Shown here: positions 43,965 to 64,000 of the stretch, in pieces
Layout of the letters: every line of letters begins with the position of its first letter
How positions within the stretch are numbered: position 1 is the stretch's first letter
Origin: an uncultured Gammaproteobacteria bacterium
GTDB taxonomy: Bacteria; Patescibacteriota; Microgenomatia; Levybacterales; GWA1-39-11
Direction of reading: 5' to 3'
Assembly: GCA_964641355.1 (NCBI GenBank)
Contig: CAZXND010000001.1
Span: 151,858 to 215,857, forward strand
DNA length: 64,000 nt
Program-made: the position numbers and the translations under genes
Notes under the pieces: model-generated
Database searches by the model: none
Told to the model about the DNA's origin: nothing
What the model saw: the letters and a program-made list of their open reading frames with translations, nothing else

Positions 43965-43996
43965 CACTGACATTAACAAAATAGAATAGAGATTCC

Positions 43997-46948: not shown

Positions 46949-49423
46949 TTAACATTCAGAGTATCCACAAGAATAGCACTTCTTACATCCTTCTTCATGA
47001 GCAAGAGTTCCTGCTCCACAAGAAGGACACATGTCAAATAGATTCGTATTATGCTCTTCTGCAGAAAGAGGTAATTGTTCAAGAACAACTGACTTATCTG
47101 AAAGAAGGCTCTGCTTATCTAAAACAGGAGATGACGCATTCACTTTCATACTTACATGCCCGTTTCCATTACCGTTTGTATGACCATTTGTTGATGGCCC
47201 ACTCTCCATATTTAATGGTGACTGTGGAGTAGAAGTATTAGCATCAATAACTCGACCATTTACTTTAAATCCAAATTCTTCAGCAAGTACTTTTGCGATT
47301 GCATCAGGTACTGACCTGACCCTGTTTTCTCCAAAACCAACAGCCCTCATCCCTCCAATTCCAGCAAGTTGAGCAACAATTTTTTTTACTTTTTCTCTTT
47401 GCGAAACAGAACTTTGAAGACGTAGAACAAGAGAAATCATTCTTCCTAATGCATCCGTCATTGCAGTAACATCGCTTCCTGATTTTCCAATCGTCACAAA
47501 AAGCTCAAAAGGCTCACTGTTTTGATCATTGTTAATAGTTATATAAGCTTCTCCAAGTGGAGTATTTGTCTTGTAAGTAAGACCGTGCATTACGGTCGGT
47601 CTCCTTACAACAGCTGGTTGGACAACTACAGGTTTTGGTTCTTCTTTTTTAGTATCTGTTCTTTCAAGAACTCCAGCACGAGATCCCTCTCTCATATAAG
47701 CAATTCCCTTAAGTCCTAACTTATAGGAAAGGTTATAAAGTTTTTTTACATCATCAATCGTATGAGTCTTCGGTGCATTTACCGTCTTTGAAATTGAAGC
47801 GTCAACGTATTGTTGAATAATTCCTTGAACTTTAACATGATCTTCAGGTGTTAAATCACCTGCAGAAACAAAATATTCAGGTCTAACTCCTCCACTTTTC
47901 ATCTCATCCTCGTGCTTTTTGTACCATTTCTCATAAAGATGATGTCTTACAATATGCTCACCTAGTCGATCTTTTCTAACAAATTCAAATTCAAAAACCG
48001 GTTCAATTCCAGATGTTGTATTGGAAAGAAGAGAAGTGGTTCCTGTTGGAGCCTGCATTAAAATTACTGAATTTCTAATTCCAAATTCTTTAATTGTCTT
48101 TTGAATATCTTCTGGAAGAGCTTGAATAAATTTTCCTTTAGGAAAAAGTTCTTTGTCAAATTTTCCGAATGATCCTTTTTCACGCGCAACTTCAACAGAC
48201 GCTCTATAGGCTTCGTCTCGAATTAATTTATAAACCTTGTCTATAAATTTCAAGGACGCAGGAGATCCGTACCTCATATGAAGTTTTATGAGTGTATCTC
48301 CAAGACCCATTGTCCCAAGACCAATTCGCCTCTCTCCTTCGTATTGCGTTTTACGAATACCCTCAAAGACATAAGGATCCATTTCAACAACATCATCTTG
48401 AAATCTAACTGCAGTTCTAACAACTTTTTTAAGAGTTTTAAAATCAAATACTCCTTTTTTGTCAATATCACTTCCTTCTACAAAAGCGGAAAGATTAATC
48501 GATCCTAAATTACATACTCCCCATGGTGGAAGACCTTCTTCTCCACATGGATTAACACAATTAATTCTGTTCCAATACCAATTGTTGTGCCATTTATTAT
48601 ATCTTTCCATAAATACAACTCCTGGCTCAGCGCTTCTCCATGCAGCCTCAGCAATTAAGTCCCAAATCTTTCTAGCTTTAACAACTTTATGAACAATTAC
48701 TTTCCCTCCATTTTTCTTCCACACATCAAGATCACCATCCCATTTCTCTTCGTACATTGGATCTTTTTTATCTGGAAAAACTAACTCCCAATCATCATCG
48801 CGCTCAACAGCTTCCATGAATTTATCACTGACACAAACAGAAAGATTAGCTCCATTAATTTTAGTTAAATCTTGTTTTACAGTAATAAAATCTTCAATAT
48901 CAGGATGCCAATCCCAAAGCATAAGCATGAGAGCACCTCTTCTTGTCCCCCCTTGCTGAATAATATCTTTTGTTGCAACTGAAAATAATTCCGCCCAATT
49001 AATCGGTCCTGATGAAAACCCATTGACCTTTTGCACTCTTGCGCCTTTTGGTCTAAGCGTTGAAAGATTTATTCCGACACCTCCACCCCTTGCCATAATC
49101 TCTACCATTTGTTTTAATGTCTCAAGAATTCCATCTCTTGAGTCTTTCGGAGAAGGAATAACAAAACAATTATAATAAGTGACCGCAAAACCAGTTCCTG
49201 CTCCTGCTAAAATTCTTCCACCTGGAATATATTTGAAATCCTTCATCGCAAAATAATACTCTTGTTCCCATTTCTTTCTATCCTCAGGCTTCTCAATTTC
49301 TGCTACTGCTTTTGCGACTCTTTTCCACATTTGTTCTGGGGTTTTTTCGGTAGGAGCACCTTTTCCGTCTTTGAGGGAATATCTATCTAAAAAAACTTTT
49401 TGCGATAAATCGTTTAGTTTCAT
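46949..49423 (-). CDS. nrdJ: Class II (adenosylcobalamin-dependent) ribonucleotide reductase NrdJ with C-terminal zinc-ribbon
   Basis: 824 aa. The N-terminus and catalytic core resemble monomeric-type class II RNR (...GGGVGINLSTLRPKGA...NPCGEEGLPPWGVCNLGSINL). C-terminal Cys cluster CPSCGAGTLAHEEGCKKCYSCGYSEC. Confidence 0.85.
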   Translation of the reverse strand: MKLNDLSQKVFLDRYSLKDGKGAPTEKTPEQMWKRVAKAVAEIEKPEDRKKWEQEYYFAMKDFKYIPGGRILAGAGTGFAVTYYNCFVIPSPKDSRDGILETLKQMVEIMARGGGVGINLSTLRPKGARVQKVNGFSSGPINWAELFSVATKDIIQQGGTRRGALMLMLWDWHPDIEDFITVKQDLTKINGANLSVCVSDKFMEAVERDDDWELVFPDKKDPMYEEKWDGDLDVWKKNGGKVIVHKVVKARKIWDLIAEAAWRSAEPGVVFMERYNKWHNNWYWNRINCVNPCGEEGLPPWGVCNLGSINLSAFVEGSDIDKKGVFDFKTLKKVVRTAVRFQDDVVEMDPYVFEGIRKTQYEGERRIGLGTMGLGDTLIKLHMRYGSPASLKFIDKVYKLIRDEAYRASVEVAREKGSFGKFDKELFPKGKFIQALPEDIQKTIKEFGIRNSVILMQAPTGTTSLLSNTTSGIEPVFEFEFVRKDRLGEHIVRHHLYEKWYKKHEDEMKSGGVRPEYFVSAGDLTPEDHVKVQGIIQQYVDASISKTVNAPKTHTIDDVKKLYNLSYKLGLKGIAYMREGSRAGVLERTDTKKEEPKPVVVQPAVVRRPTVMHGLTYKTNTPLGEAYITINNDQNSEPFELFVTIGKSGSDVTAMTDALGRMISLVLRLQSSVSQREKVKKIVAQLAGIGGMRAVGFGENRVRSVPDAIAKVLAEEFGFKVNGRVIDANTSTPQSPLNMESGPSTNGHTNGNGNGHVSMKVNASSPVLDKQSLLSDKSVVLEQLPLSAEEHNTNLFDMCPSCGAGTLAHEEGCKKCYSCGYSEC

Positions 49424-49563: not shown

Positions 49564-50010
49564 TTACTTTATCAATTTTTTCAGTTCTTTTTCAAAATCT
49601 TCTAAATCTACAAATCTCTTAAAAACGCTTGCAAATCTTATATAGGCGACTTTATCAATTTTTTTAAGCTTTGCAGCGACCATCTGTCCGATTTTTTTAC
49701 TGTCTATCTCGACTGTCTCTCCACCCCTAAGTTCCAATTCTATTTCTCCAACAATTCTATCTATATCGCTAAAAGACACATTAGTCTTTTCACATCCCTT
49801 AATAATTCCGCTTTTGAGCTTTTCGCGGTCGAATTGCTCTCGTCTACCATCTTGTTTTTTGACAATAAGAGTTACGTTTTCGATTCTTTCGTAGGTCGTG
49901 AACCTTTTCCCGCAAGAGGTACAAAGTCTTCTTCTTCTTATTACGTCGTTTTCACCAAGTCTTGTTTCAACGACTTCAGTTTCTGTATTTCTACAATAAG
50001 GACAATGCAT
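49564..50010 (-). CDS. nrdR: Transcriptional repressor NrdR
   Basis: MHCPYCRNTETEVVETR...RRRLCTSCGKRFTTYE zinc ribbon plus an ATP-cone; 148 aa. Located immediately upstream of nrdJ. Confidence 0.85.
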   Translation of the reverse strand: MHCPYCRNTETEVVETRLGENDVIRRRRLCTSCGKRFTTYERIENVTLIVKKQDGRREQFDREKLKSGIIKGCEKTNVSFSDIDRIVGEIELELRGGETVEIDSKKIGQMVAAKLKKIDKVAYIRFASVFKRFVDLEDFEKELKKLIK

Positions 50011-50938: not shown

Positions 50939-52558
50939 ATGAACCTTCTATCCAAGCTTTCTTTATCTCGTATAACTACATATTATATAGTAGCTCTTCT
51001 TTTCTTTGTATTTTTCTCTCTTCTTCCATCTCAAGCTCTTGCACAATCCCCACTCAACATAAATACACAAGAGGGTGTAGAGAATAACATCCACACATAC
51101 TCACAAATTGCAATGATTGAAGTTTTAAGAAGTGCATCATGCTTCTTAACAGGCAAAGACCCTCTTGCGGTTAAAGCACAATGTATAGGAGTTAATCCCA
51201 TCTCAGGCAAATATGGGTACATTAATCAAGAAAACAATGGAATGATCGGAGTTATGGGTAATTTAATGTCTATGACATTCAACATTCCAATCAGCACCGG
51301 CCAATATTCATCTTATCTTGCAAATGATTTTGGTATAGCAAAAAAGACTTATGCTCAGGGACCTGGATTTCCTGGTCTTGCACCTGTTCTTAACCTTTGG
51401 AAAACTTTTAGAAATATTTCATACTTACTGTTTGTACTCATATTTATCGCTCTTGGTCTTGGAATAATGTTTCGAGTCAAAGTTGATCCGCGTACAGTTA
51501 TGACCGTACAAAATCAAATTCCCAAAATTATTATCGCGTTGGTTCTCGTAAGTCTTTCGTATGCGATTGTTGGATTTCTGATAGATCTAATGTTTGGGTT
51601 CATTTATCTTGAGTTTAATATGATCGGATCATCAACCCCAGATATTCAAACCAATATTTTTTCTTTTGTTAATAATACTATTGACCTTGAAGGAGGAGGA
51701 ATTTTTGGAACAATGATGCTTTCCTCTCTATCAGTTGGGAAGATTATAGCTTCTTCCTTTAATAATCTTTTTGCAGAACTAGGAAGCTCTCTTCTGGGAA
51801 CTGCTACAAAAGCAATTGGAGTGCTTTTAATACCTGTGACCTTTGGTGCGTCAGGAATTCCAGCAGGTTGTGACATCGCAGGAAAAATAGGAATTGGACC
51901 AGTAAGTATAAGAGATATTCCATTTATTTCTTCTGGTTGTGATGCAGTTGATAATCTTCCTCAAATAATAATCGGGGCGATAACAACAATTCTGGCATTT
52001 TTGGTTATAGCGATTGCAGTACTCTGGGCATTATTTAGAACATGGTTTATGCTTATCAGAGCTTTTGTCTATATTCTTATAGATACTCTTTTTGCTCCTC
52101 TTTGGATATCTGTTGGAATTTTGCCAGGTGCATCAGGTCTTGGATTTGAAAAATGGATAAGGCATTTGATGGCAAACATTTCTGTTTTTCCTGTAGTCGT
52201 TGGAATGTACTTAATAGCCAATTCACTAATCCACTCATTTGGCGGCGCCAATAGTTTTACACCTCCTCTAGTTGGGAACCCAAGTCAATCAGATGCAATA
52301 GGAGCGCTTATTGCTCTTGGATTTATTCTTTCCACTCCACAAGCTATATCAACAACAAGAAACGCCTTTAAAGCACCCGACTTTAAGCTCGTCGCACTCA
52401 AAACAGCGCTTGGAGTTGGGGTTGGAGGACCAAGAAGAGTTGTAAGCGGAGGACTAGGATACGTATACAGTCCGAAGCACGATCCAAAATCAGGAACCGT
52501 TATTTATCCTGCTGGTCCTATTGGAAAAGGGTTGAGAGCGCTTGGGATTATTCGCTAG
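50939..52558 (+). CDS. Polytopic membrane protein with N-terminal secreted domain; candidate VirB6/TrbL-like channel subunit
   Basis: Signal peptide, extracytoplasmic domain of about 130 aa, then at least 6 TM helices. Assigned by architecture and genomic context (same locus as the PrgI-like and VirB4-like genes), not by motif. Confidence 0.3.
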   Translation: MNLLSKLSLSRITTYYIVALLFFVFFSLLPSQALAQSPLNINTQEGVENNIHTYSQIAMIEVLRSASCFLTGKDPLAVKAQCIGVNPISGKYGYINQENNGMIGVMGNLMSMTFNIPISTGQYSSYLANDFGIAKKTYAQGPGFPGLAPVLNLWKTFRNISYLLFVLIFIALGLGIMFRVKVDPRTVMTVQNQIPKIIIALVLVSLSYAIVGFLIDLMFGFIYLEFNMIGSSTPDIQTNIFSFVNNTIDLEGGGIFGTMMLSSLSVGKIIASSFNNLFAELGSSLLGTATKAIGVLLIPVTFGASGIPAGCDIAGKIGIGPVSIRDIPFISSGCDAVDNLPQIIIGAITTILAFLVIAIAVLWALFRTWFMLIRAFVYILIDTLFAPLWISVGILPGASGLGFEKWIRHLMANISVFPVVVGMYLIANSLIHSFGGANSFTPPLVGNPSQSDAIGALIALGFILSTPQAISTTRNAFKAPDFKLVALKTALGVGVGGPRRVVSGGLGYVYSPKHDPKSGTVIYPAGPIGKGLRALGIIR

Positions 52559-55500
52559 CTTGAAGTAAGGTTCTTAAGATCGAGTACCACTGTTGTTTCA
52601 ATCATCGCAATAATTATTAACGCAAGAATACCTCTTGCGGAATAGAGCTTAAGTCGTCCATTTTTATCCACTTCAAGAATTGATTCTAAATCCCTAAATT
52701 GCTTCTCAGCATTATGCGTTCTCTCTTCAATCAACTTTCTCTGCTCCTCATCAGATAGAAGTTTTTCTTCATCGCTTAATTCTCCGACGCTATTTGCAAG
52801 CTTAATTCTAATATGGTCTAACTTTTCTCGCAAATCATCTCTTGTTAGAGATGCAGCCTGAGGACCGTAAATTTCCTCGAGTCTTGAAGTTGCTCTTCTA
52901 AAAGGTTTGTCTATTCCAAAAACATCCCAGAAAAATCCTTTTTTCGCCACTTCAAAAAGAGTACCAACCGTGTGTCTAACTGATTTTGCCCTACCCCCTT
53001 GTCCCAGATATTGACTGGCTGATTCTGCAAATTCCATCGCAGATTTGACACGCTCATCAATACCTTCTGATTTAAGAAAAGCAGTAAGCGCTGAGCCGGC
53101 CTTCATTGCGTTTGATATATCATTCATGTTTCTAACCAAAGCATCTGCGCCCCTATCTTTAGACCAAATACTTGAAAGCATTTTCAAGCCAGACCCTTCT
53201 GGACCTTCTTCAAGATCTTTTATAGAAATGTCATCTACCCTAAGAGTTCTTGTATAGATGTCATCAAATTCTTTTCCCCATGAAAGTTTTTTAATTTTTT
53301 CCGAAGTAACGAAACCCTGCATAGAAGAAAACATTTTTTCAAGTTTTTCTGCCTCTTCTTCGCTTCTTAAAAATTTCACCAAAGCACTCCTTTGCATGGG
53401 AGTTAGATGTGCAAAGTCAATTTGCTCTGGTACTCCTTCATTAAATTTTCCATTTAAAGCATCTTCTCTCATCTTGCTTATTATTGCTCCATACTCTTGT
53501 TTGAAACCATCAAATTTATTCTGTGCCTTAAATGCTTTCACTTTCCTTTTTAGCGAGTCTAACTCTTCCCTTCCAAGGGAGAGCGCTTTGCTTGATAGCT
53601 TTTCTAAATTTTCATCATCAAAATAGGATTTAAAAAATTCGAATTCTTTTTTGTCTGTTCCGTCGTATTTTATTTCTACAAAGGGCGAGGACGGATCAAG
53701 AAGAAGCTCTTGAAAATCAGAATCACTAGGAGCTTTATCTCTAAAAAGTCTTATCACTTCTTCGGTTCTAAATTTTCTAATTTTTTTCCAAATGTCTTCT
53801 AGCTCACTGAGCTTTGATTCTTTGTCTTTTGGATTTCTTGTAGCTCCTTTCAACTGCATAAAAAGCCCAAAATTATTAGCCTCTTTTACTGTCTCTTTGA
53901 ATCTACTTACATCTGACATCCTACCACTCAACTCAAATTCCTTTAATCTTTCCTCGATAAGATCATATGCCTCGCCTTCGCTTATTATTCCGAGCTTAGT
54001 CGCCACTTTATATTCAAAAAACTCTCTGTGCCTCTCTCGAATACCAAGAATTCTCCAACCAGAAGAATAAAAATCAGCTACTGCAAATAGGTCCTTAAAA
54101 AGTTTAGAACCTGCTCTTTCAGCTTCTAAATCATTCTCGTATTTAATTCCCAACTCACTAGCTCTTTCATAAGCCATTCTAAGCTTCATCTCTCTTAGAA
54201 ACTCTCTATCCTCAGCATTAAGAATGTTAAATTTTCCAGTGAGGAATTCTTCATAGTTAAAGATATTGAAAGCAGCACCTGGATCAGAATAGATGGCTAG
54301 AAGGCCCGGTGCATGTTCACCACGAGAAGCAATAACTATTTCTCTTTGCGAATCAACCAAAATGTCATAGGCCGTTCTAATAGACCTCTCTACTTTTTTT
54401 CTAGCACGGTCTAAATCTAATAAATTCCCTTTCTCATCTTTAAACTCATAAACACCAGCTTCAACCATCTTCATTTGTTCTTCGATAAGATCTTCATTGA
54501 CTCTTGTAACAGTCTCAGAATATAAATGCTGCTCGAATCCTCCTTGTCTTAATCTCTCATCTTCAAGCTTGTCGGCTATTCTAAAATACATGGCTTGAGT
54601 AAAACCGTCTTCAAAACTAAGTGCCTTAAACATCCCATGAGATTGAAGTCTTGAGGCTGCACCTTGGATTTGCTCAATTGATCTTGATTCAACGTTAACC
54701 CGCATAAATAACGAGTTTATAAGAATATTGTATCGCTCAGAAAATTCGGTAAGAACTTTTGTTCCATCAGCTCTATTTCCAATAGTAATTTCAAGATATC
54801 TAGTCGCTTCTCCAAAAGCTCTTTGGAGAGTCTCAAAAACAGGAGACTCTAATTCATTTCCTCTTCTTGCTGTATCATAAAATAGATCAAACTTCTCACT
54901 TAACCATCCCTGAGGATCAATGTCCAACTGTTCCATATCCTCAGACTGAATTGTAAAAAAGTTTCTTCTTTCTCTATCCTGTGAATGACTCAAGCGTTTT
55001 TCTATTGCAGACTCTTGATCAGCTATGGACTTTAGAACCTGCGCCTTCTCAACTCCATTAACACCCTCCATTTCATCAACTCTTTTAAAAGCCGCCCTTA
55101 GTTCTTCCAACTGTCTCCCTACATTACCCTGAAAAATATCAAAATTACGATTAACCCTTCCTATTTCTGCAATAAGCGATAAGTCTTTTATACCCTTATT
55201 ACCAATCGCATCTGCCCCACCCTCAACAGGTTTAACACCCATCTCTCCTAAAATTCTAGCGACCTGTCTTTCCTCTGAGGATATTACCTGGCCCCTACCT
55301 TCTCTTTCTTCAAAATGTTTCTGCCAATCGTTTGTCATGCTACTTATTTGAGGATTAGTTAAAAGTTCGCTGCCTCGACCTTGATAGGGTTTGCTTCTAA
55401 TCTCAGCTGCCCCTTTTCTAACATCAAGATTTATTTTTCCATCAAAAGAAGCTGGACTTCCTTCTTGTTTCGGTTCCATTCTACCTTCCAGTGTATAAGG

Positions 55501-55563
55501 GTTCACTCTTTGTGTCAACTCAGATTGATTTAAAAAGATTATTCTTTCTTTCATAGATCGCAT
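52555..55563 (-). CDS. Giant (1002 aa) alpha-helical/coiled-coil protein with single C-terminal TM helix (tail-anchored)
   Basis: No enzymatic motifs found. It is charged and Glu/Lys/Arg-rich. The only hydrophobic segment is C-terminal (GILALIIIAMIETTVVL). Its 5' end overlaps the VirB6-like gene by 4 nt on the opposite strand. Confidence 0.4.
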   Translation of the reverse strand: MRSMKERIIFLNQSELTQRVNPYTLEGRMEPKQEGSPASFDGKINLDVRKGAAEIRSKPYQGRGSELLTNPQISSMTNDWQKHFEEREGRGQVISSEERQVARILGEMGVKPVEGGADAIGNKGIKDLSLIAEIGRVNRNFDIFQGNVGRQLEELRAAFKRVDEMEGVNGVEKAQVLKSIADQESAIEKRLSHSQDRERRNFFTIQSEDMEQLDIDPQGWLSEKFDLFYDTARRGNELESPVFETLQRAFGEATRYLEITIGNRADGTKVLTEFSERYNILINSLFMRVNVESRSIEQIQGAASRLQSHGMFKALSFEDGFTQAMYFRIADKLEDERLRQGGFEQHLYSETVTRVNEDLIEEQMKMVEAGVYEFKDEKGNLLDLDRARKKVERSIRTAYDILVDSQREIVIASRGEHAPGLLAIYSDPGAAFNIFNYEEFLTGKFNILNAEDREFLREMKLRMAYERASELGIKYENDLEAERAGSKLFKDLFAVADFYSSGWRILGIRERHREFFEYKVATKLGIISEGEAYDLIEERLKEFELSGRMSDVSRFKETVKEANNFGLFMQLKGATRNPKDKESKLSELEDIWKKIRKFRTEEVIRLFRDKAPSDSDFQELLLDPSSPFVEIKYDGTDKKEFEFFKSYFDDENLEKLSSKALSLGREELDSLKRKVKAFKAQNKFDGFKQEYGAIISKMREDALNGKFNEGVPEQIDFAHLTPMQRSALVKFLRSEEEAEKLEKMFSSMQGFVTSEKIKKLSWGKEFDDIYTRTLRVDDISIKDLEEGPEGSGLKMLSSIWSKDRGADALVRNMNDISNAMKAGSALTAFLKSEGIDERVKSAMEFAESASQYLGQGGRAKSVRHTVGTLFEVAKKGFFWDVFGIDKPFRRATSRLEEIYGPQAASLTRDDLREKLDHIRIKLANSVGELSDEEKLLSDEEQRKLIEERTHNAEKQFRDLESILEVDKNGRLKLYSARGILALIIIAMIETTVVLDLKNLTSS

Positions 55564-55600
55564 TTTACAGACTCAAAACCCTCTTTACTTGATAATCTCC

Positions 55601-55620
55601 TCACAATTTCATCACAATTT
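55601..55620. promoter_or_regulatory. Tandem direct repeats TCACAATTT-n2-TCACAATTT in divergent promoter region
   Basis: Two perfect 9-bp copies with an 11-bp period. They overlap the -35 region of a TATAAT (55643..55648) that lies only 6 nt from the ATG of the NTPase-wHTH gene, suggesting a leaderless transcript. Confidence 0.35.
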
Positions 55621-55654
55621 AGCCTCAAGAAAATAAATAGGTTATAATATTCTC

Positions 55655-56980
55655 ATGAAACAAAACGAAGCCTCTCATTTTGAATCCCTCTATCCTGCCG
55701 AAACCCGAGAGAAAGAAATTGGCGAAATCATTGGGTTTGTAAAAAAGGGCTTATCTTCACAACTAATTGGTCTTCCAGGAAGTGGGAAAAGCAATGTTTT
55801 AAATCTTTTAACATACAACAGAAAAGTGCGAACTCTTCATTTAGGAAACGCGCAAAATAAATACCATTTCGTATACATGGATTTTTCCGAAATTAAAGGT
55901 CGAAATAATTTTGAAGTTATTAAATTTATTCTAATTTCACTCGCCTATTCACTTTCTGAAAGAAGAATGAATAAAGAATATGGAGAGATAAATAAATATT
56001 TAAAAGAAGCAATTTCATTTAATGATGAGCTCATTCTTTTCCAAGCGCTTAAAAAAAGCATTGATTTTCTAGCAAACGAATTAGACCTTACCGTAATCCT
56101 TCTACTGGACAGGTTTGATCAATATTTTTACGATGTATCAGATTCCTTTTTTCTTAATTTAAAAATTCTAAGAAATAGGGCGAAGTATAAATTTTCTACC
56201 GTTTTCTCACTTTCACGCTCAATACAAGAACTCCTAGAAGAAGACGTTTATTCTGAATTTTCTGAATTTTTTTCTCAAAACAAGGTCTTTCTTAGTCTTT
56301 TTGACAAAATAGGCATAGCATTTAGACTTTCATATCTTGATAAAACCACTAATAAAAAAACAAGTGAAATGACAAAAAAAGAACTTCTAAGAATAACATC
56401 CGGACATGGAAAATTGACTCGAGTAGGATACGAACTTTTACTTTCTGAAAAAGAAATATCCGACATTGAAAACTTTTTAGAACAAAAAGACATTATTAAA
56501 AAAGTCTGTTATGAAATTTGGGATACTCTTACCCCTGCCGAACAAAATATTTTAATAAAAATTTCAAAAAAAGAAGATATAAAAATCCCAAATTATTTTG
56601 AAGAAATAGAACTTATAAAAAACGGGGAAATATATATTCCAATTTTTGAAAAATTTCTAAGCAAAGTAAAATTCAAAAACGAATTAATAGTTTATGATGA
56701 AGGAAAAAATGAGATACTTAAAGGTCAAGATAATTTAACAGATGTTTTAACTCCGCTAGAATTTAGAGTCTTAAGATTTTTAATTATAAATAAAGATAGA
56801 ACTTGCGAAAAAGAGGAAATTATTAACTCTGTATGGAAAGACTCAAAAACACAAGAAGGAGTTAGCGACCAAGCCTTAGATCAAATCGCTTATAGACTTA
56901 GAAAAAAGATTGAGAATGACCCCAACAATCCAAATTACATTTTAACTATCAAGGGTCGTGGTTTTAAATTTAATCCTTAA
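55655..56980 (+). CDS. P-loop NTPase fused to C-terminal OmpR/PhoB-type winged-helix DNA-binding domain (putative locus regulator)
   Basis: N-terminal Walker A LIGLPGSGKSNVLNLL in an AAA/STAND-like domain of about 250 aa. The C-terminal 100 aa match the trans_reg_C pattern (LTPLEFRVLRFLIINKDRTCEKEEIINSVW...SDQALDQIAYRLRKKIE...ILTIKGRGFKF). Confidence 0.55.
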   Translation: MKQNEASHFESLYPAETREKEIGEIIGFVKKGLSSQLIGLPGSGKSNVLNLLTYNRKVRTLHLGNAQNKYHFVYMDFSEIKGRNNFEVIKFILISLAYSLSERRMNKEYGEINKYLKEAISFNDELILFQALKKSIDFLANELDLTVILLLDRFDQYFYDVSDSFFLNLKILRNRAKYKFSTVFSLSRSIQELLEEDVYSEFSEFFSQNKVFLSLFDKIGIAFRLSYLDKTTNKKTSEMTKKELLRITSGHGKLTRVGYELLLSEKEISDIENFLEQKDIIKKVCYEIWDTLTPAEQNILIKISKKEDIKIPNYFEEIELIKNGEIYIPIFEKFLSKVKFKNELIVYDEGKNEILKGQDNLTDVLTPLEFRVLRFLIINKDRTCEKEEIINSVWKDSKTQEGVSDQALDQIAYRLRKKIENDPNNPNYILTIKGRGFKFNP

Positions 56981-56982: not shown

Positions 56983-58353
56983 TTGTATTTTAAATTTAGA
57001 TTCGGTTATGATTTAAGAGTGAGAAAATTCCTTCTTCTAATAATAATTCTAATTACTTTTTTTTCTATATCAAAGATTTCCTTTGCACAAGAACAAAAAA
57101 CCCCATCTTCTACTCCTGCTGCTTCTGATCCAAACGGTTACGGAGCAATTATTACTAGCCCATCGAATCCGGACGACATAGTTGAAGGGCACAAGATTAT
57201 AACTGTAAAATTCACAATCCCATCATCAGAAATTGGAAATGAATTTTTACTTTGTCAGGAAGCAGATTGCGGTGAAACTCACGACAAATTAAATAATGGA
57301 ATCGCAGACTCAAAACCCACTACGGCAAGTTTTGATATTAAAGTATGTGGAGCAGAAGCTGGAGTTTTACAAACCAATAATTGCGAAAACAGTGGCTCTG
57401 ATCTTTACGGTGGAATGATGTACTATCTTACATTGGTAAAACATGAAAGAGAATCAACTGGGCAAGTAACAACCTCGGAATCATTCACTCCTGTTGCGAG
57501 TGTCAGTTTTTATGTTAAAAGAATCTATCCAAATGTTGATTTAACTTCTGAAAACGAAAACAAACCGCGTATTGGATCGAAGCCTATCTTACATTTCAGC
57601 CAAAACGAATTTCCAGTACCAGAAGATGCCCTTACTGATACTTATACGTATAAAGTTCAAGTTTTTAAAATTGGAGCAAGTGATGAAGAGTATGACTATC
57701 AAGAAGAAGTAGAACTAAATGAAAATAATAAGTCTGATGACCTCAAAATAACTACAAACGGGGAGACCGGAGGTGGCCTCCCGGAAGGAAATTACATTGT
57801 AAAAATTTTCCGTAAATCCTCCCCCTTCACTGATTCTGCAAATACAGTAGTCGGGGGAGATGGTTTTCTAATGTACACAATCGATTTTAGCGTCACGAAT
57901 AATGGGGGAAAGATAGGAGTAAAGAAGAAAGACCCAGAAGGGAAAGATAATAGACTTTTTGCTGCAGGAGATCAGCTCAGTCCGACCCCTCCTCCACTTC
58001 CCTGCTTGGAAGGGTGGAAAGACGATCAAAAAACTATAATATCTCAGGATCCTAAAGAAATAAAATATTGTACGAAAGTTGGTACAGCGCTGGGAAGTCT
58101 TGAGGTAATGCCTCTTGGATTAATATCAAATCTTCTAAGATGGTTCCTTGGTATTGCCGGATCCGCTTCGCTTATTATCTTTCTTTATGCAGGATATGTA
58201 TTAATGACATCAGCTGGAAACAAGGAAAAGGTTCAGGGGGCACGTGAAACAATAACCTCAGCCATTGTTGGACTGATATTTATCATTTTTTCTGTAGCAA
58301 TTCTTGAATTTATCGGCGTTGATATCTTGCAAATTCCAGGACTTGGAAAATAG
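56983..58353 (+). CDS. Secreted Cys-containing 330-aa domain fused via Pro-rich linker to a C-terminal VirB2/TrbC-like two-TM pilin module (candidate tip adhesin/minor pilin)
   Basis: Signal peptide, a soluble domain with 6 Cys, a SPTPPPLP linker, then ...LISNLLRWFLGIAGSASLIIFLYAGYVLMTSAGNKEKVQGARETITSAIVGLIFIIF..., which is homologous to the three downstream small proteins. Confidence 0.45.
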   Translation: MYFKFRFGYDLRVRKFLLLIIILITFFSISKISFAQEQKTPSSTPAASDPNGYGAIITSPSNPDDIVEGHKIITVKFTIPSSEIGNEFLLCQEADCGETHDKLNNGIADSKPTTASFDIKVCGAEAGVLQTNNCENSGSDLYGGMMYYLTLVKHERESTGQVTTSESFTPVASVSFYVKRIYPNVDLTSENENKPRIGSKPILHFSQNEFPVPEDALTDTYTYKVQVFKIGASDEEYDYQEEVELNENNKSDDLKITTNGETGGGLPEGNYIVKIFRKSSPFTDSANTVVGGDGFLMYTIDFSVTNNGGKIGVKKKDPEGKDNRLFAAGDQLSPTPPPLPCLEGWKDDQKTIISQDPKEIKYCTKVGTALGSLEVMPLGLISNLLRWFLGIAGSASLIIFLYAGYVLMTSAGNKEKVQGARETITSAIVGLIFIIFSVAILEFIGVDILQIPGLGK

Positions 58354-58356
58354 CCA

Positions 58357-58701
58357 ATGAAAGATTTATTAGCTCTGACAGTACAAAACCCAAGCGGAGT
58401 AATCGAAAAATTGAGTCCTCCTCCCGAAATAATCAGTGGGCCGGGCACAACAAATACAATAGTGAGATTTGGTCTTAATCTTCTTGTTGTTACTGGAATT
58501 ACCGCATCTCTTATCTATATGCTTCTTGCCGGAATTAAATGGATAACTTCTGGCGGAGACAAACAGAAGATCGAAGAGGCAAGGAAGGGAATTACATATT
58601 CAATAGTTGGAATTATTATTATTTCTTTGTCTTTTGTAATCATACATTTAATAGGAGAAATATTAGGCGTACAGCTTCTCTCAAGGTTTGGTGTTAAATA
58701 A
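58357..58701 (+). CDS. Two-TM pilin-like protein (VirB2/TrbC-like topology), paralog 1
   Basis: 114 aa: ...NTIVRFGLNLLVVTGITASLIYMLLAGIKWITSGGDKQKIEEARKGITYSIVGIIIISLSF... Hydrophobic helix, conserved charged loop, hydrophobic helix. Confidence 0.45.
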   Translation: MKDLLALTVQNPSGVIEKLSPPPEIISGPGTTNTIVRFGLNLLVVTGITASLIYMLLAGIKWITSGGDKQKIEEARKGITYSIVGIIIISLSFVIIHLIGEILGVQLLSRFGVK

Positions 58702-58713
58702 AAAGTTGCACTA

Positions 58714-58742
58714 TTGACAAACTTTTTAGAACATGCTCTAAT
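58714..58742 (+). promoter_or_regulatory. Sigma-70-like promoter (TTGACA-17-TCTAAT) upstream of the signal-peptide-bearing pilin paralog
   Basis: A perfect -35 hexamer with 17-bp spacing to an A/T-rich -10, about 10 nt upstream of the ATG at 58752. Confidence 0.3.
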
Positions 58743-58751
58743 AAATTAGAT

Positions 58752-59189
58752 ATGAAAAAATCACTTAACTTAAAAAAGGCAATAATTCCCTTATCGGCTT
58801 TTGCTTTACTTGCAGTTGCGACTCCAGCATTTGCTGCCACCCAACAACAAGTGATTGACTTAAGTCCTGTTAATGGAGTTGTTCCTAGTAGTGCTGTTCA
58901 AGTAAGTGACGTTATAAGATTTATTATCAATTTACTTGTAGTCATCGCTGTAATTGCTTCTCTTGTATACCTTATTTACGGAGGACTTCGATGGGTAATT
59001 TCAGGTGGGGACAAAGAGAAAGTTGAAGCAGCAAGAAAAACAGTAGTTGCTGCAATTATCGGCTTGGTCGTTGTTCTTCTCTCATGGGTTATAATCACAG
59101 TTGTGATGCAAATCGTAACTGGAAAGGCGCTTAATAATTTCACTCTTCCTACACTACAATCTCCAAACACACAAACTAAACCTCAATAA
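58752..59189 (+). CDS. Two-TM pilin-like protein with cleavable signal peptide (candidate major pilin), paralog 2
   Basis: 145 aa. Signal peptide MKKSLNLKKAIIPLSAFALLAVATPAFA|A, then ...SDVIRFIINLLVVIAVIASLVYLIYGGLRWVISGGDKEKVEAARKTVVAAIIGLVVVLLSW... About 60% identical to paralog 1 across the core. Confidence 0.5.
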   Translation: MKKSLNLKKAIIPLSAFALLAVATPAFAATQQQVIDLSPVNGVVPSSAVQVSDVIRFIINLLVVIAVIASLVYLIYGGLRWVISGGDKEKVEAARKTVVAAIIGLVVVLLSWVIITVVMQIVTGKALNNFTLPTLQSPNTQTKPQ

Positions 59190-59228
59190 CCTCCTTTTAC
59201 TTTCTCAAAATTTTTATATAATAAAATA

Positions 59229-59558
59229 ATGAATAGTCTCAATACTAGCAACTGGAACTCGTGCATCGACAGTGCTTATGGTGTTCCACAACTTACATGC
59301 CTTTGGGTAATTTTGAGTAATATCCTTAACGCCTTCCTTACTTTATCAGGACTTGTAGCATTATTCTTAATAATCTATTCTGGGATAAAATTTATAATGT
59401 CGCGCGGAGATAAAGAAAAAATCGAAGGAGCAAGAAAAACTTTTATTTTTGCTATTATCGGGCTCGTTTTTATTCTATTATCTTTTTATATTTTAGTATT
59501 TATAGGACAACTAACAGGAATTAAAATCGATAAGTTAATAACCCCGCCACAAAGATAA
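59229..59558 (+). CDS. Two-TM pilin-like protein, paralog 3
   Basis: 109 aa: ...LSNILNAFLTLSGLVALFLIIYSGIKFIMSRGDKEKIEGARKTFIFAIIGLVFILLSF..., the same conserved core. Confidence 0.45.
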   Translation: MNSLNTSNWNSCIDSAYGVPQLTCLWVILSNILNAFLTLSGLVALFLIIYSGIKFIMSRGDKEKIEGARKTFIFAIIGLVFILLSFYILVFIGQLTGIKIDKLITPPQR

Positions 59559-59560: not shown

Positions 59561-61339
59561 TTAAGAAGTAATTCCTCCTATAATTGCCGCTGCTTGTCCA
59601 ACTCCCCCAAGAGCTGCAAAAGCCAGGAGGAAGATTAGAGCTTTACCTTTTTTTGTACTTCCAAAGGCTTTTAATCTTTTTAGTAGCTCGACTTTTTCTT
59701 TTGTTGTTTCTTTTGAAACTCCCATTTCTTTATCAATCATTTCTCCTTTTTTAAGAAGCTCGTTAAACAGTTCTTCTCCGAATTCAGGATTGTTTACTAA
59801 TTTAGTAGCGTCTTCATTGCTTATTCCCACAATCATTCCCCGAGAAAGAATTTCAGTCTTAACACTTTCGCGAAGATTACTCGCAAATTCTGGATCATTA
59901 GCAATTCTCTCTTTGATTTCGACTGCTCTTACCTCTTTTCTAGCCTCAAACTGCATATCCGTCTCTCCTTCATTCTTAACCAAACTATCCTTCGCAAGTC
60001 TTACAATCATAGCGTCATTACCATTCTCTATTAAGTATTTTGTGTACTCTTGAACCTTTTTCCTATCAAACTCAACCTTAATTTGTTTTCCTACTACTTT
60101 TTTAACTTCTGTTGTTTGGATTTGTTTTAAAATGTCTTTTTTGTCGTTATCTTTTTCAGCAGCAATTTCTCTTGTGGTAATCTGATTAAGAGCTTCTATT
60201 CTCGCTTGTGCATCTTGAGCAAGTTGCATTTCTGCTTTAACCGTAATAATACCCTTTGCAGTCTCAATCATTTTCACATCTTGCGCTGCCTTTTCTTTCT
60301 CAGTAGTGTTAAAAGCATCTTCTGCTTTTGTCTCCTGCTCTTTTAGTGCTTCCAGTTCTTCACTTAATCTTTCTTCTTCCTCTTCAAGAGTTTTGATTTT
60401 TCCAGGTAGGCCCTCTTTTTCTGATTTTAACTGAAGATATCTTTGACGTTTCTCACGAGCTTGTCCGAAGGATAGATATTCCTTTTCTTCATTAGAAAGA
60501 CTGCTTGGATCAATTGCATTTTTTGCTTTTGCCGCAGCGATTGACGTCAATATCTGGTCAGGTCTCGCTTTTGCACCATACATTTCAAAAAAAGCAACTT
60601 CTATCGGCCTGTCATAAATTTCAAAATCCTTCACTCCTGAACTTTCAAGGTTAGAAAGCTCTCCTGCAATAGTAAGGTTTCCACTTGCATCGGCAAGTTG
60701 TCCATTAAATTCTTCCTGCCTACTTTTCGCCTGAGCCAAATCTTTAGAACTATTTTCTCTTTCCCCTTCTTTCCTTTCACGATCTTTCTTGGCCTTATCA
60801 AATTCTTTTCTAGTCATAACAAGCTTTGCCTCAATCTCACTCGGTCCAAAACCTTGCTCAAGAACTTTTTTTATCTCTTCCTGAAGATTCTTATTGCCCA
60901 AAACGAATTTTGCGACCTCTCTTGTCTCATCCTCACTCAATCCACCAAACACCTCTTCGTTAGCTTGAAACCTAGCGGTAACCTGATCTAGTATTTTATC
61001 TTGATTTGTTCTATCGATATTAGCAAACCCTTTTTCAGCAATTTCTTGGGCTAACTGTAAATTCTCTTTTGCCTCTTGGTATTCTTGTACGCGATCCCCC
61101 GGAGGACTTCCCAGTCTATCTTCGAATCTCTCTTGAGCGTTGAAATCTAAGTTATTTTCTTGTTGAGCAAATTTTTTTAGTATATCTTCTGCATTTTGAT
61201 TTTTCGCTAATTCTTCCCTAATTCTTTGTCCCATATCACGATTTGTCTGCTGCTCAGGAGTAAGATGTGCCCCTGGTGCTACCGGCTTTCTTTCAGTCAT
61301 TGATCTAACCGCAATTTCTGCTTTATTGATGTCCGCCAT
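59561..61339 (-). CDS. 592-aa highly charged coiled-coil protein with single C-terminal TM helix (tail-anchored)
   Basis: Glu/Lys-rich with no enzymatic motifs. The C-terminal segment ALIFLLAFAALGGVGQAAAIIGGITS is the only hydrophobic region. Confidence 0.4.
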   Translation of the reverse strand: MADINKAEIAVRSMTERKPVAPGAHLTPEQQTNRDMGQRIREELAKNQNAEDILKKFAQQENNLDFNAQERFEDRLGSPPGDRVQEYQEAKENLQLAQEIAEKGFANIDRTNQDKILDQVTARFQANEEVFGGLSEDETREVAKFVLGNKNLQEEIKKVLEQGFGPSEIEAKLVMTRKEFDKAKKDRERKEGERENSSKDLAQAKSRQEEFNGQLADASGNLTIAGELSNLESSGVKDFEIYDRPIEVAFFEMYGAKARPDQILTSIAAAKAKNAIDPSSLSNEEKEYLSFGQAREKRQRYLQLKSEKEGLPGKIKTLEEEEERLSEELEALKEQETKAEDAFNTTEKEKAAQDVKMIETAKGIITVKAEMQLAQDAQARIEALNQITTREIAAEKDNDKKDILKQIQTTEVKKVVGKQIKVEFDRKKVQEYTKYLIENGNDAMIVRLAKDSLVKNEGETDMQFEARKEVRAVEIKERIANDPEFASNLRESVKTEILSRGMIVGISNEDATKLVNNPEFGEELFNELLKKGEMIDKEMGVSKETTKEKVELLKRLKAFGSTKKGKALIFLLAFAALGGVGQAAAIIGGITS

Positions 61340-61679: not shown

Positions 61680-61884
61680 ACTATTTTATTATTGGATAAT
61701 TAAATTTTAATGTCAAACAAACTCTGAAATTAAAATCCTATAAAGTTGAGACTCAAGTAATATTTCCAAAACGATTTATACCCATAGTTTTCACGATTTG
61801 TGCCTAGCTTGATATAGTTAATAGCCTTGCAATGAAAATTTTCACGTTATACGCTTAGTTTACGGCTATATACCAATAACTCTG

Positions 61885-63051
61885 GTGTATTTCTCGCCCA
61901 GAAAGGCTCGTAATATGGAAATGGAGAATCATCCGATTCCCCTTGATGTTACAGGATTTAAATTTAGACTGATAGGAAGCATGACTGTTAAGCAGTTTTT
62001 GTATCTTTTGGCTTCTGGAATACTTGTATCGCTTACACTTCTTCTTCCCTGGCCACTTTTAATAAGAGTTCCAATGATTACTTTTTTCTCTTTGGTTGGA
62101 TTTAGTCTGGCTTTTATTCCAATCGATGGAAGACCCATGGATAAAATGATTGCTAGCTTTGCAAAACACGTTCTGTTTACAGAAGACTTGTGGGTTTATC
62201 GAAAAAAAGGAGCAAATATTGCTTCTTATGAAATCTTCCAAGAACCCAAAGTTGAAACAAAACCCGCTCCACAAGAACCATCCCAACCAAGTATACGCAC
62301 TTTTGCTATTAAAAAACCTCACGTAAAACTCGAGCAAGAAGAACTCGATTTTTTGAAAAGAGTACGAGGGTTTTTCTCAGAATCAGCCGTTCAACAACAA
62401 CCAGTTATAAATTCTACAACTTCTTCTCCCCATCCAACGCAAACAGAAGGAGAAGAAGCCTTGAAAATCCGCACTGAGATTCAACAAATTAAAAATCGTG
62501 TGGAAGTTGAAGGTCCAACAGAAGAATTAAAAAAAAGACTTACAGAACTCGAAGCAAGACTTAGCAATATTCTCGCTCAAAATATTGCCCTTCAAAATAA
62601 AGTATTTGAATTTCAAAGACAAATTCCAGACAAGGCTTACCAGGTGGAAGGCAAACCTACTATAACACCTAACGCAAGACTAGTAGACAGCGCAAGTCAA
62701 GTTAAGGCTGGCTTTCCAATGCTTCCTGATATCCCAAACGTGATACTTGGAATAGTAAAAGATCCCAGAGGTAGGATTTTACCTGGAATTATAGTCGAAG
62801 TGGTAGATCAAAATAATATTCCAGTGCGTGCTTTTAAAACAAATAAATTAGGACAATTTGCTGCCGCAACACCTCTTCCAAATGGAAAATATAAAATAAT
62901 TTTTGAAGATCCTCAAAAAAACAACGAGTTTGAAACAATCGAGATAGACCTTAATGGACAAATTTTTCAACCGCTTGAGGTTATTTCAATTGATCAAAGA
63001 GAGAGACTTAGACAAGAGCTCTTTGGTAAGACAAATTCGTTACAAAACTAA
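61885..63051 (+). CDS. PrgI/VirB3-like T4SS membrane protein fused to coiled-coil and C-terminal beta-sandwich (CarboxypepD_reg-like) domain
   Basis: The N-terminal 110 aa (PLDVTGFKFRLIGSMTVKQFLYLLASGILVSLTLLLPWPLL...FSLAFIPIDGRPMDKMIASF) match the PrgI-family pattern (..tfrQllYLl.. hairpin of two TM helices). The VirB4-like gene follows immediately. The C-terminus has VILGIVKDPRGRILPGIIVEVVDQNNIPV...GKYKIIFEDP. The start may be at M11/M13. Confidence 0.5.
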   Translation: MYFSPRKARNMEMENHPIPLDVTGFKFRLIGSMTVKQFLYLLASGILVSLTLLLPWPLLIRVPMITFFSLVGFSLAFIPIDGRPMDKMIASFAKHVLFTEDLWVYRKKGANIASYEIFQEPKVETKPAPQEPSQPSIRTFAIKKPHVKLEQEELDFLKRVRGFFSESAVQQQPVINSTTSSPHPTQTEGEEALKIRTEIQQIKNRVEVEGPTEELKKRLTELEARLSNILAQNIALQNKVFEFQRQIPDKAYQVEGKPTITPNARLVDSASQVKAGFPMLPDIPNVILGIVKDPRGRILPGIIVEVVDQNNIPVRAFKTNKLGQFAAATPLPNGKYKIIFEDPQKNNEFETIEIDLNGQIFQPLEVISIDQRERLRQELFGKTNSLQN

Positions 63052-63052
63052 T

Positions 63053-63685
63053 ATGTCAAAGAGGAAAATTTCATCAACAACACAGGACTTTACAGAACTA
63101 ATAGACATAATCGATGGAATCGCTTTTTTCAAAAATAGGAATTCAGCTCTTGTTGTTGAAGTTTCATCAGTTAATTTTTCACTGCTCTCCCCCGATGAGC
63201 AGAACTCAAGGATCTATGGCTACATGAGTCTTTTAAATTCTCTTTCTTTTCCAATCCAAGTCCTAGTAGTAAGTCAGAAAATAAATATGTCTTCCTATGT
63301 AAAAACATTAGATCAAAGAATCACAAGTTCACAAAACTCAAGAATTTCAAAACACTTAGTCGAATATAAAAACTTTATAAAAGAGCTCACAAAAACGGAA
63401 GGACTTCTTGACAAAACGATCTATGTAGTTATTCCACTCACCCCTCTTGAGCTTGGAATATCAAACGTTGCAAAAGAGATAAAAAAACAAGCCGAGTTTG
63501 TAGAAACAACTAGAAAAACACTTAATAGTCGGGCAGCAAGCGTTATTAACCAACTACAAAGACTAGGTCTTACAGCAAAAGTACTCAACTCAGACGATTT
63601 AGCAAGACTTTACCATAATATTTATAACCAAGAATCGATAAATATAGAGTATGAGTCACAGGATTTAAAGAATGTGATTTTATAA
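63053..63685 (+). pseudogene. VirB4/TraE-like T4SS ATPase, N-terminal 210-aa segment (ORF terminated by TAA; continues in another frame)
   Basis: STTQDFTELIDIIDGIAFFKNRNSALVVEVSSVNFSLLSPDEQNSRIYGYMSLLNSLSFPIQVLVVSQ follows the N-terminal-domain pattern of Gram-positive VirB4 homologues (..DG.i.....g.f...y.l..iNF.l...dEqe.i...y...LNs.....Q.....). The start at 63053 was chosen because its first codon abuts the stop of the PrgI-like gene. Confidence 0.5.
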
Positions 63686-63689: not shown

Positions 63690-64000
63690 ATGTTTGGAAA
63701 AAAGAAACAAGCAACTCCACCTCAACCCAAAATCTCTCCGTCTATGTCTGCTTTAAAAAGCGGATCGATATCACTTGTAGATTTAATCGCCCCCTCATCG
63801 GTTGAAGTAGATTTTAAATTCGTTAGGATCGGGGATAGTTTTTTTAGAACCTTCTTCGTTGCAGATTATCCAAGAGTCGTGTCTCCAGGCTGGCTTTCAA
63901 GCCTTATCGACTTTAAGGAATCAATGAATATCTCCATGTTTATTTACCCAGTTCAAAGCTCAGACGTTTTATCTAACCTCCGAAGAAAAATTGCCGAGAT
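63690..64000 (+). CDS. VirB4/TraE-like T4SS ATPase, continuation (+1 frame), truncated by window end
   Basis: MFGKKKQATPPQPKISPSMSALKSGSISLVDLIAPSSVEVDFKFVRIGDSFFRTFFVADYPRVVSPGWLSSLIDFKESMNISMFIYPV matches the conserved ..DLIAP.....f...G..y.Rt.fi..yP..l...wl block of Gram-positive VirB4 homologues, at the expected distance from the N-terminal segment. Confidence 0.5.
   Translation, partial: MFGKKKQATPPQPKISPSMSALKSGSISLVDLIAPSSVEVDFKFVRIGDSFFRTFFVADYPRVVSPGWLSSLIDFKESMNISMFIYPVQSSDVLSNLRRKIAE

Follow-up and report, generated by a model that had tools for sequence, protein, structure and literature searches.

Proteins with a DNA-binding domain of the OmpR family bind direct repeats at an 11-bp phase. 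PhoB, OmpR, KdpE and Bacillus subtilis PhoP share a C-terminal Trans_reg_C domain of the same fold and recognise tandem direct-repeat sites with an 11-bp period. In the MalT/LAL proteins an N-terminal STAND-like NTPase is followed by a C-terminal DNA-binding domain, in MalT a LuxR-type helix–turn–helix accompanied by a large sensor (SUPR), and the MalT-type mode of working is multimerisation onto several phased sites. AfsR and the other large SARPs of Streptomyces combine an OmpR-type winged helix–turn–helix (wHTH) with BTAD, NOD and TPR regions, and SARP/AfsR wHTH proteins have been shown to recognise direct repeats inside core promoters, spaced 11 or 22 bp apart and occupied by protomers side by side (PMC10936776). 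Here we describe a gene, termed REG, and a short array of direct repeats beside it, both found in a 64-kb stretch of DNA (64,000 nucleotides of contig CAZXND010000001.1, positions 151,858–215,857 of the forward strand; hereafter the window) from an uncultured member of the Levybacterales. REG lies within a type IV secretion system (T4SS) locus, and the reading that we regard as somewhat probable on sequence grounds is that its product is the dedicated transcription factor of the Levybacteria T4SS/pilin locus, with the array as its candidate operator.

The gene and the regions of its product are laid out as follows (residue numbers are those of REG).

55655–56980, + strand: REG gene, 441 aa, a P-loop AAA+/STAND-like module followed by an OmpR/PhoB-type winged helix (open reading frame, ORF, and translation)
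55712–56299, + strand: nucleotide-binding α/β domain, residues about 20–215 (alignment invariants, predicted secondary structure, Foldseek and sub-threshold profiles)
55769–55792, + strand: Walker A, GLPGSGKS, residues 39–46
56096–56113, + strand: Walker B, ILLLD-R, residues 148–153
56306–56674, + strand: helical lid and winged-helix-like linker, residues about 218–340 (predicted helices 218–337; invariant TGGHG at residues 248–252)
56687–56977, + strand: OmpR/PhoB-type wHTH, residues 345–441 (Pfam PF00486, PDB sequence matches and Foldseek)
56864–56911, + strand: recognition helix of the wHTH, residues 404–419

Residues 365–439 of REG match Trans_reg_C (PF00486) at E 3.4e-18 (65.9 bits against a cutoff of 26.2), and a profile scan finds the same match in 20 of 20 aligned REG homologs. 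The PDB sequence matches of the C-terminus are the DNA-binding domains of PhoB, KdpE, RegX3 and OmpR, the PhoB–DNA entry 1gxp included. In the AlphaFold2 (AF2) model of REG (mean pLDDT 89.8), strands are predicted at 345–348 and 353–356, helices at 367–378, 386–393 and 405–419, and a hairpin at 429–432 and 436–439; this is the strand–helix–wing pattern expected of the OmpR fold, and the Foldseek match to the KdpE DNA-binding domain 3zq7 has TMt 0.75 with a root-mean-square deviation of 4.1. The recognition helix and wing are nearly invariant between clades in the alignment, and are the same in genomes where the gene is inverted as in those where it is not. The original prediction, drawn from the letters of the sequence, had coupled a STAND/AAA-like P-loop domain to a C-terminal OmpR-type wHTH and had named the C-terminal profile match as its test; the Pfam match, the AF2 model and the Foldseek results bear this architecture out. 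A two-component response regulator also has a receiver, and no Response_reg match was found in REG; NCBIfam response-regulator models align to residues ~343–441 alone, far below their cutoffs. The domain order of REG is that of a response regulator with the P-loop module replacing the receiver, and unlike the OmpR/PhoB response regulators it has no phospho-acceptor.

No Pfam model reaches threshold in the N-terminal 340 residues, where the best match is AAA_22 (E 0.0067, below cutoff). Sub-threshold matches among 20 family members are to AAA_16 (13), NPHP3_N (5), nSTAND3 (4), AAA_35 (2) and nSTAND1 (1), and in distant homologs the AAA_35 and nSTAND1 profiles span the equivalent of the REG lid/linker region. 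At the structural level, the Foldseek matches of the model are ORC4 (E 2.6e-7), Orc1 and Cdc6 (E range 2.6e-7 to 3.7e-5; global TM 0.3–0.4), whilst the best TM-scores of the model are with the archaeal Walker ATPases PABY2304 (2qen) and SSO1545 (2fna), at TMt 0.54–0.56. By this similarity REG, like 2qen, 2fna and ORC/Cdc6, consists of an AAA+ base and lid followed by a winged-helix region; it differs from them in its 10–16% identity, in the OmpR type of its terminal domain and in the lack of any origin sign at the site. In the model, the P-loop domain at the N-terminus resembles an AAA+ module of the ORC/Cdc6 or STAND type.

Compared with the large SARPs, REG likewise joins an OmpR-family wHTH to a STAND-type module, but the domain order is reversed, with the wHTH C-terminal; a BTAD match and a TPR sensor are both absent, the protein has 441 rather than ~1000 residues, and the Walker motifs are partly degenerate across the REG family. 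Compared with MalT, it shares the order of an N-terminal STAND-like NTPase and a C-terminal DNA-binding domain, but the latter is an OmpR-type wHTH and there is no sensor domain. Indeed, none of the C-terminal ligand-sensing repeats searched for (TPR, WD40, LRR, SUPR) was found in REG, which ends with the wHTH at residue 441.

REG has 835 homologs, mostly 50–70% identical over the full length, and these derive from metagenome-assembled genomes of Levybacteria/Levyibacteriota. An exhaustive phmmer search with the N-domain returned 440 clusters at 50% identity, and ten distant members of this set (21–28% identity; phmmer E 1e-10 to 1e-23) were scanned for domains. Five have a REG-like architecture of ~450 aa, with nSTAND1, AAA_16 or AAA_35 plus Trans_reg_C, and the other five have an extra N-terminal Ser/Thr kinase or TIR domain; Trans_reg_C is C-terminal in all seven of the ten that carry it. 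Distant REG homologs reach nSTAND1 at E 1e-11, and the distant nSTAND1/AAA_16/AAA_35 plus Trans_reg_C proteins are, judged by these alignments, true N-domain homologs. An order of N-terminal NTPase and C-terminal wHTH had been thought unusual; with 440 clusters sharing the N-domain and seven of seven Trans_reg_C domains C-terminal, that view is not upheld, and the REG architecture is a known, uncharacterised database type. The distant proteins with this ~450-aa architecture, which come from multicellular bacteria, stand in another genomic context. One of them, P0160 (L081:5191–8572; 27% identity, nSTAND1/AAA_35 plus Trans_reg_C), overlaps the end of a Response_reg-TCAD9-APH gene, follows two histidine-kinase genes and has no T4SS beside it, which indicates that the same architecture serves unrelated signalling or conflict systems elsewhere. 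This setting is that of the conflict and signalling ('ternary') systems of Kaur et al. 2020, where kinase–wHTH couplings are mentioned, and neither the REG family nor any operator (PMC7159879). Literature searches found no description of the REG family, nor of a T4SS regulator in Patescibacteria.

The genes around REG identify the region as a Patescibacterial (MPF-FATA-like) type IV secretion locus of Levybacteria, in which a VirB4-type protein, a PrgI/VirB3 protein and a VirB2-like pilin array occur in one neighbourhood at a GC content of ~34%.

50939–52558, + strand: 539-aa polytopic membrane protein with a signal peptide and ~9 transmembrane segments, adjoining the large gene
52555–55554, − strand: large divergent gene, 999–1002 aa (ORF listed as 52555–55563; no family match)
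56983–59558, + strand: T4SS_pilin (VirB2-like) array of four genes directly 3′ of REG (Pfam PF18895 in 4 of 4)
56983/57019–58353, 58357–58701, 58752–59189 and 59229–59558, + strand: the four pilin genes
61915–63051, + strand: PrgI/VirB3-like membrane protein (PF12666 PrgI, E 2.3e-6, above cutoff)
62954–63685, + strand: 243-aa protein like the N-terminus of VirB4 or TrsD (NCBIfam VirB4_plasma and TrsD, below cutoffs)
63690–64000, + strand: ORF (MFGKKKQ...) that leaves the window end

The ORF starting at 63690 has no Pfam match over its first 103 aa and is probably the VirB4 ATPase proper, and the 539-aa membrane protein, whose gene stands beside the large gene in 68 of 80 loci, may by its topology be a VirB6-type channel component. 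This organisation agrees with the published description of Patescibacterial T4SS, in which no dedicated regulator is reported and expression is ascribed only to gene dosage near the origin (PMC12102498). The order REG, pilin array, PrgI/VirB4 genes is kept in ~68 of 80 genome loci, and even in relatives where the N-domain is only 33–35% identical REG is still found between the pilin array and a 1310–1350-aa gene. In one clade the REG gene alone is inverted in place. REG is the sole predicted DNA-binding protein in the conserved gene set. No terminator-like site was found between REG and the first pilin gene, so the pilin genes are probably co-transcribed with it.

A large gene of this kind is always present on the other side of REG, yet its sequence is poorly kept. 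A word-index homolog search with the 1002-aa protein returned itself alone, tblastn recovered it at 27–35% identity in 12–13 loci, and the counterpart ORFs in relatives range from 706 to 1732 aa (median 1065). The product is a fast-evolving protein with a helical, charged, cytoplasmic body and a single C-terminal transmembrane segment. A 592-aa protein encoded at 59561–61339 (− strand) resembles it in layout, with a charged helical cytoplasmic body and a single C-terminal transmembrane segment; neither protein has a match in PDB, PHROG, Pfam or NCBIfam. Translation of the large gene probably begins at its second ATG, at 55554 (MKER..).

The original prediction had placed the control region of REG between it and this divergent gene, and the two are indeed separated by 91 bp (measured to the listed 1002-aa ORF), with the following elements in the window.

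55588–55620, + strand: conserved module C-TTGATA-N6-TCACAA-N5-TCACAAT (comparison with relatives, promoter scan)
55589–55594, + strand: −35-like TTGATA
55601–55609, + strand: unit 1, TCACAATTT
55612–55620, + strand: unit 2, TCACAATTT
55613–55618, + strand: CACAAT, counterpart of the −10 TACAAT of relatives
55621–55629, + strand: AGCCTCAAG box directly after unit 2, giving with the unit TCACA-N-AGCCTCA
55643–55648, + strand: TATAAT −10 (leaderless-type promoter P2), 6 nt before the REG ATG at 55655
55562–55567, − strand: TAAAAT −10 of the large gene, 7 nt before its probable ATG at 55554

The 9-bp unit TCACAATTT has just two exact copies in the window, repeated with an 11-bp period as had been predicted, and it is phased like the sites of the OmpR family. 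Counted within the window, its total is not above chance. Exact 9-mers repeated at 10–12 bp number four against 1.6 expected, and at least one is found in 80% of simulated sequences; the search for TCAC(A/G)ATTT that had been proposed as a check, run on the 64-kb window, gave four matches against 2.5 expected and so no enrichment, and a relaxed dimer pattern gave four against 2.0, with a plausible context at the REG site only. The repeat is raised above chance because it is conserved at the orthologous position and is recovered by a reciprocal search from motif to protein. When the upstream regions of relatives are aligned on TTGATA, the module reads C-TTGATA-N6-T[TCA]A[CT]A[AG]-N5-T[TCA]ACAA[TA], with a unit consensus of T-[T>C>A]-A-C-A-A in two to three direct repeats at 11-bp phase; where there is a third unit, as is often the case, it stands 10–11 bp beyond unit 2, and the C at unit position 2, as in the window, is a minority variant. 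Judged from this alignment, the TCACAATTT pair of the window is units 1 and 2 of the conserved module. Information at the unit positions is 1–2.3 bits, against 0.1–0.3 bits at flanking intergenic positions. The module lies within 650 nt upstream of REG in 57 of 79 loci (background 0.06 matches per kb), and it adjoins the divergent 706–1732-aa ORF in 65 of 83 loci, at 33–36 nt from its start codon in 58. The sharing of the control region with the divergent gene, stated in the original prediction, and the recurrence of the repeat in related genomes, named there as a test, are thereby supported. The half-site of B. subtilis PhoP, TT(A/T/C)ACA with a spacer of ~5 bp, closely resembles the T[TCA]ACAA-N5 of the array. 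No RNA family was found by Rfam in the REG/large-gene control region or in that of prgI/virB4.

The association of the motif with REG was also found from the opposite direction, by a scan that took no account of proteins. The exact pattern CTTGATA-N6-TTAYAA-N5-TTACAAT was searched for in 241 million metagenome records, and 40 of its 56 matches adjoin a REG homolog, 37 of them in the same orientation with the homolog 4–528 nt downstream and three in the inverted arrangement. Two further matches, on short contigs, have the large-gene context. The remaining 14, about the number roughly estimated for chance, comprise two with less than 150 nt of downstream flank and 12 without locus context, most of them at an unrelated GC content. 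Within these loci, a unit at the corresponding spacer position was found in none of 126 other leaderless-type promoters and in none of seven other promoters with the layout CTTGAYA-N18-TAnnAT, and the 16 promoters that do carry a spacer unit all belong to the REG gene. A generic promoter feature of the lineage is excluded by these two counts.

In most genomes unit 2 is itself a good −10 (TACAAT), 18 nt past TTGATA and 6–12 nt before the REG ATG, and in the window the promoter scan calls TTGATA-18-CACAAT. C-TTGAnn is moreover the general form of the −35 in the lineage and the units resemble −10 hexamers, so that the whole block could be a compact bidirectional core promoter in which the TNACAA units serve as tandem or alternative −10-like hexamers with no dedicated binder, and REG has its targets elsewhere, for instance at the virB4-operon promoter. 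We consider this unlikely, for three reasons. Unit 1 stands in the spacer, which is normally unconserved, and is missing from the 126 and seven promoters just described; unit 2 lacks the essential final T in several genomes (TCACAAA, TAACAAA), and its ACAA core and 11-bp phase are kept; and in the clade with the inverted gene REG is not preceded by the block at all. There the module is found just past the REG stop codon, where it keeps both its 33–36-nt distance from the large gene's start codon and its orientation to that gene, and the −35-like hexamer is often TTTATA whilst the units persist. The invariant arrangement across genomes is REG, array, large gene. Since the array keeps a fixed distance to the large gene even where REG is inverted, its primary link is to the large gene, and since the recognition helix and wing of REG do not differ between clades, a common DNA target is to be expected. 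On this comparative evidence, the repeats are best read as an operator that belongs with the divergent large gene and in this lineage also overlaps REG's own promoter.

We infer that REG would act on the array as follows. The N-terminal module would multimerise, probably with nucleotide bound, and multimerisation would set the winged helices head-to-tail on successive repeats along one face of the DNA. Counted from the leaderless start of the large gene, the units stand at about −46 to −62; the promoter of that gene is without a recognisable −35, and REG bound to the units would most likely activate it. In this lineage the array fills the spacer and −10 of REG's ancestral promoter, TTGATA-N18-[T/C]ACAAT; SARP repeats, in contrast, end 8 bp before the −10, whereas unit 2 of the REG array overlaps it in most genomes. 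With the array inside that promoter, its occupancy should also set the level of REG and probably that of the co-transcribed pilin genes, and the TTGATA-N18-[T/C]ACAAT promoter would be under negative autoregulation by REG. The TATAAT promoter 6 nt before the ATG would then give basal, leaderless expression of REG. The window and about eight other genomes keep the module and have in addition a separate TATAAT, TACAAT or TAAAAT 6–8 nt before the REG ATG.

A second possibility is that the array is a real operator bound by some other protein, with REG regulating something else or not being a classical transcription factor. Other conserved motifs exist in the locus, and NrdR is encoded 5 kb away; set against this, the array lies directly beside REG, between it and the large gene, in every arrangement, REG stands alone as a predicted DNA-binding protein among the conserved genes, its invariant recognition helix matches the conserved ACAA core, and direct repeats at 11-bp phase are the targets of OmpR-family domains. 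We rate this possibility as improbable. NrdR boxes (the NrdR gene is at 49564–50010) were considered and rejected, as they are palindromic and the array consists of direct repeats. It is more improbable by far that REG is an ORC/Cdc6-like initiator or a partition-type protein and the repeats the iterons of an origin or of an integrated, T4SS-carrying mobile element. The Foldseek matches to ORC4, Cdc6 and Orc1 and the short, helically phased repeats would suit such a role, mobile elements often carry T4SS genes, and a position near dnaA has been reported for Patescibacterial T4SS loci (PMC12102498); but the cumulative GC skew declines steadily along the whole window and does not change direction at 55.6 kb, the protein ends in an OmpR wHTH of the transcription-factor type instead of the ORC winged helix, synteny across the order shows the locus to be a stable chromosomal block beside ribonucleotide reductase and NrdR, and the repeats number only 2–3 units, embedded in promoter hexamers at a fixed distance from two start codons. 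Least credible of all is a chance duplication in AT-rich intergenic DNA, which the counts of close repeats and of the 9-mer in the window would allow and which conservation at the orthologous position and the reciprocal search contradict.

Several observations weigh against REG as a nucleotide-controlled regulator acting through this array. The module was undetected in 18 of 83 loci, some of which are truncated contigs. Among the genomes that have a TATAAT-type −10, its gap to the array ranges from 5 to 28 nt, a spread that speaks against the array serving REG itself as an activator site of fixed geometry; the repeats had been placed at the −35 position of the TATAAT promoter, and this part of the original prediction is not sustained, the module having a −35 of its own (TTGATA). 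The signal for the two units changing in concert inside one genome is weak (4.72 versus 4.57 matches, p ~0.03, not corrected for phylogeny), and we make no use of it as an argument. The best-conserved promoter of the locus, that of prgI/virB4, carries different-looking elements, so that a regulon extending beyond the REG/large-gene region is no more than possible. Finally, the nucleotide-binding motifs are only partly kept. Walker A is canonical in the window protein, where GLPGSGKS conforms to the GxxxxGK[ST] of STAND NTPases, and across 120 homologs this motif is GK[ST] in ~58, GR[ST] in ~41 and GK[NG] in ~16. Walker B is D152-R153, both invariant, and the second acidic residue of the STAND form hhhhD[DE] is missing; an acidic residue is found near it at +3 only, and inconsistently (DRFD/DRFE, also DRFH/S/F/G). 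ATP hydrolysis, and perhaps nucleotide control, may on this alignment have been lost in much of the REG family.

Expressed as frequencies among the homologs P0001–P0120, the Walker A lysine is replaced by arginine in ~35%, and the Ser/Thr that follows by Asn or Gly in ~14%. The alignment also contains residues that do not vary, namely G42, G44, D152, R153, R188, T248, G250 and H251, with the motif TGGHG. R188 comes directly after the predicted strand 180–186 (strand 4) and on the predicted structure occupies the position of a sensor-1 arginine. The invariance of G42, G44, D152, R188 and TGGHG suggests, in the light of the model, that the phosphate-binding pocket is kept. NTP-sensing by REG, put forward in the original prediction, is possible and unsupported, and is weakened by the Walker substitutions and by the absence of a sensor domain.

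The operon that encodes the PrgI/VirB3-like and VirB4-like proteins was considered as a possible second target, and its control region in the window contains the following.

61788–61855, + strand: promoter region of the PrgI/VirB3-like and VirB4-like operon
61788–61795, + strand: distal TTTTCACG box, followed by TTGATA
61827–61832, + strand: −35, TTGCAA
61839–61846, + strand: proximal TTTTCACG box
61850–61855, + strand: −10, TACGCT

The window shares this conserved architecture with 42 related loci, and the consensus is TTTTCAC[GA]..AGCCTCA..TTTGACnnAnTTTGATAATCTTG[CA]A..ATTTTTCACGTTATAC[GA]CT. Of the two TTTTCAC[GA] boxes one occupies the spacer beside the −10, and a TTTGAC-N5-TTTGAT repeat abuts the −35. 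The ATG follows ~7–10 nt past the promoter in relatives and ~60 nt past it in the window, where the TTTGAC/TTTGAT repeat is rearranged. A TCACGATTT match at 61791 falls in the distal box, and in the REG control region of the window TCACAATTT-AGCCTCAAG resembles the distal box TCAC[AG]-N2-4-AGCCTCA of the virB4-operon promoters of related genomes. The recurrence of the repeat that the original prediction had named as a test is found at the orthologous promoter in most relatives, with a related TTTTCAC[GA] box at a second promoter, and the resemblance is suggestive of a common factor for the REG/large-gene array and the prgI/virB4 boxes. In L002, L060 and their relatives a module-like TTGACA-N6-TAACAG-N5-TNACAA is found upstream of the prgI/virB4 promoter. 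In the inverted clade, L059 (~15271–15301, − strand) and L063 (~14924–14954, − strand) have a second copy of the module, CTTGATA-N6-TTATAA-N5-T[TA]A[CT]A, in the divergent intergenic region upstream of a gene for a VirB6-like polytopic membrane protein.

A leaderless promoter for REG had also been proposed. The spacing fits, with TATAAT at 55643–55648 and the ATG at 55655, and no −35 for this TATAAT passes the promoter scan. The layout is not special to REG, however, and is a genome-wide habit, since TAnnnT is found exactly at −12 (6 nt before the ATG) in 11 of 55 window ORFs. Shine–Dalgarno motifs are almost absent upstream of these 55 ORFs, and the start regions of the window suggest widespread leaderless translation in this organism. 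On the large-gene side, the relatives have TAnnnT followed by GC 7–9 nt before the start.

Some ~20 of 80 Levybacteria loci have a gene for a ~120-aa four-helix-bundle protein (23S rRNA IVP, PF05635) inserted between the module and the REG ATG, and in the genomes with this cassette REG is not leaderless. The cassette is flanked by 30–36-nt inverted repeats made of 7–8-bp tandem units, with the 3′ arm ending a few nt before the ATG (L030:7559–7588 / 7961–7990; L058:7441–7476 / 7839–7874; L042:7564–7597 / 7960–7993); further sites are L082:6577–6930 and L083:2031–2420, and prgI/virB4 operons have the same kind of cassette in their leaders. In appearance it is an intervening-sequence-type stem cassette that invades mRNA leaders, where RNase III-type excision would recreate the short leader.

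Elsewhere in the window, an AdoCbl-II (B12) riboswitch at 46834–46910 (− strand) is found directly downstream of the ribonucleotide reductase gene (46949–49423, − strand). It overlaps the listed GTG start of the ORF 46196–46870 (− strand), which means that this start is probably mis-assigned. A tmRNA (43610–43967) and tRNA genes at 35387–35470, 35549–35636 and 38572–38643 are also present, the last of which overlaps the listed start of the ORF 38568–40403.

T4SS have been reported to be widespread in Patescibacteria and essential for the epibiotic growth of cultivated Saccharibacteria. It is a tentative suggestion, short of probable, that REG and its array are the first transcription factor/operator pair of a Patescibacterial T4SS: a sensor-less minimal STAND protein whose partly non-catalytic P-loop module drives the head-to-tail assembly of wHTH domains on a 2–3-unit array, and which would couple a hypervariable tail-anchored protein to the pilin array, and maybe to prgI/virB4 via TCAC[AG] boxes, in response to nucleotide state or a partner signal. 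With a defined protein, a ~30-bp site and a natural separation of that site from REG's own promoter, the regulation can be tested in vitro. With REG the STAND-type transcription factors gain a minimal member that lacks a sensor, and much of the REG family has another residue in place of the catalytic lysine; together with the conserved array beside it, REG offers the first testable handle on T4SS/pilin control in the uncultured, ultra-small Levybacteria.

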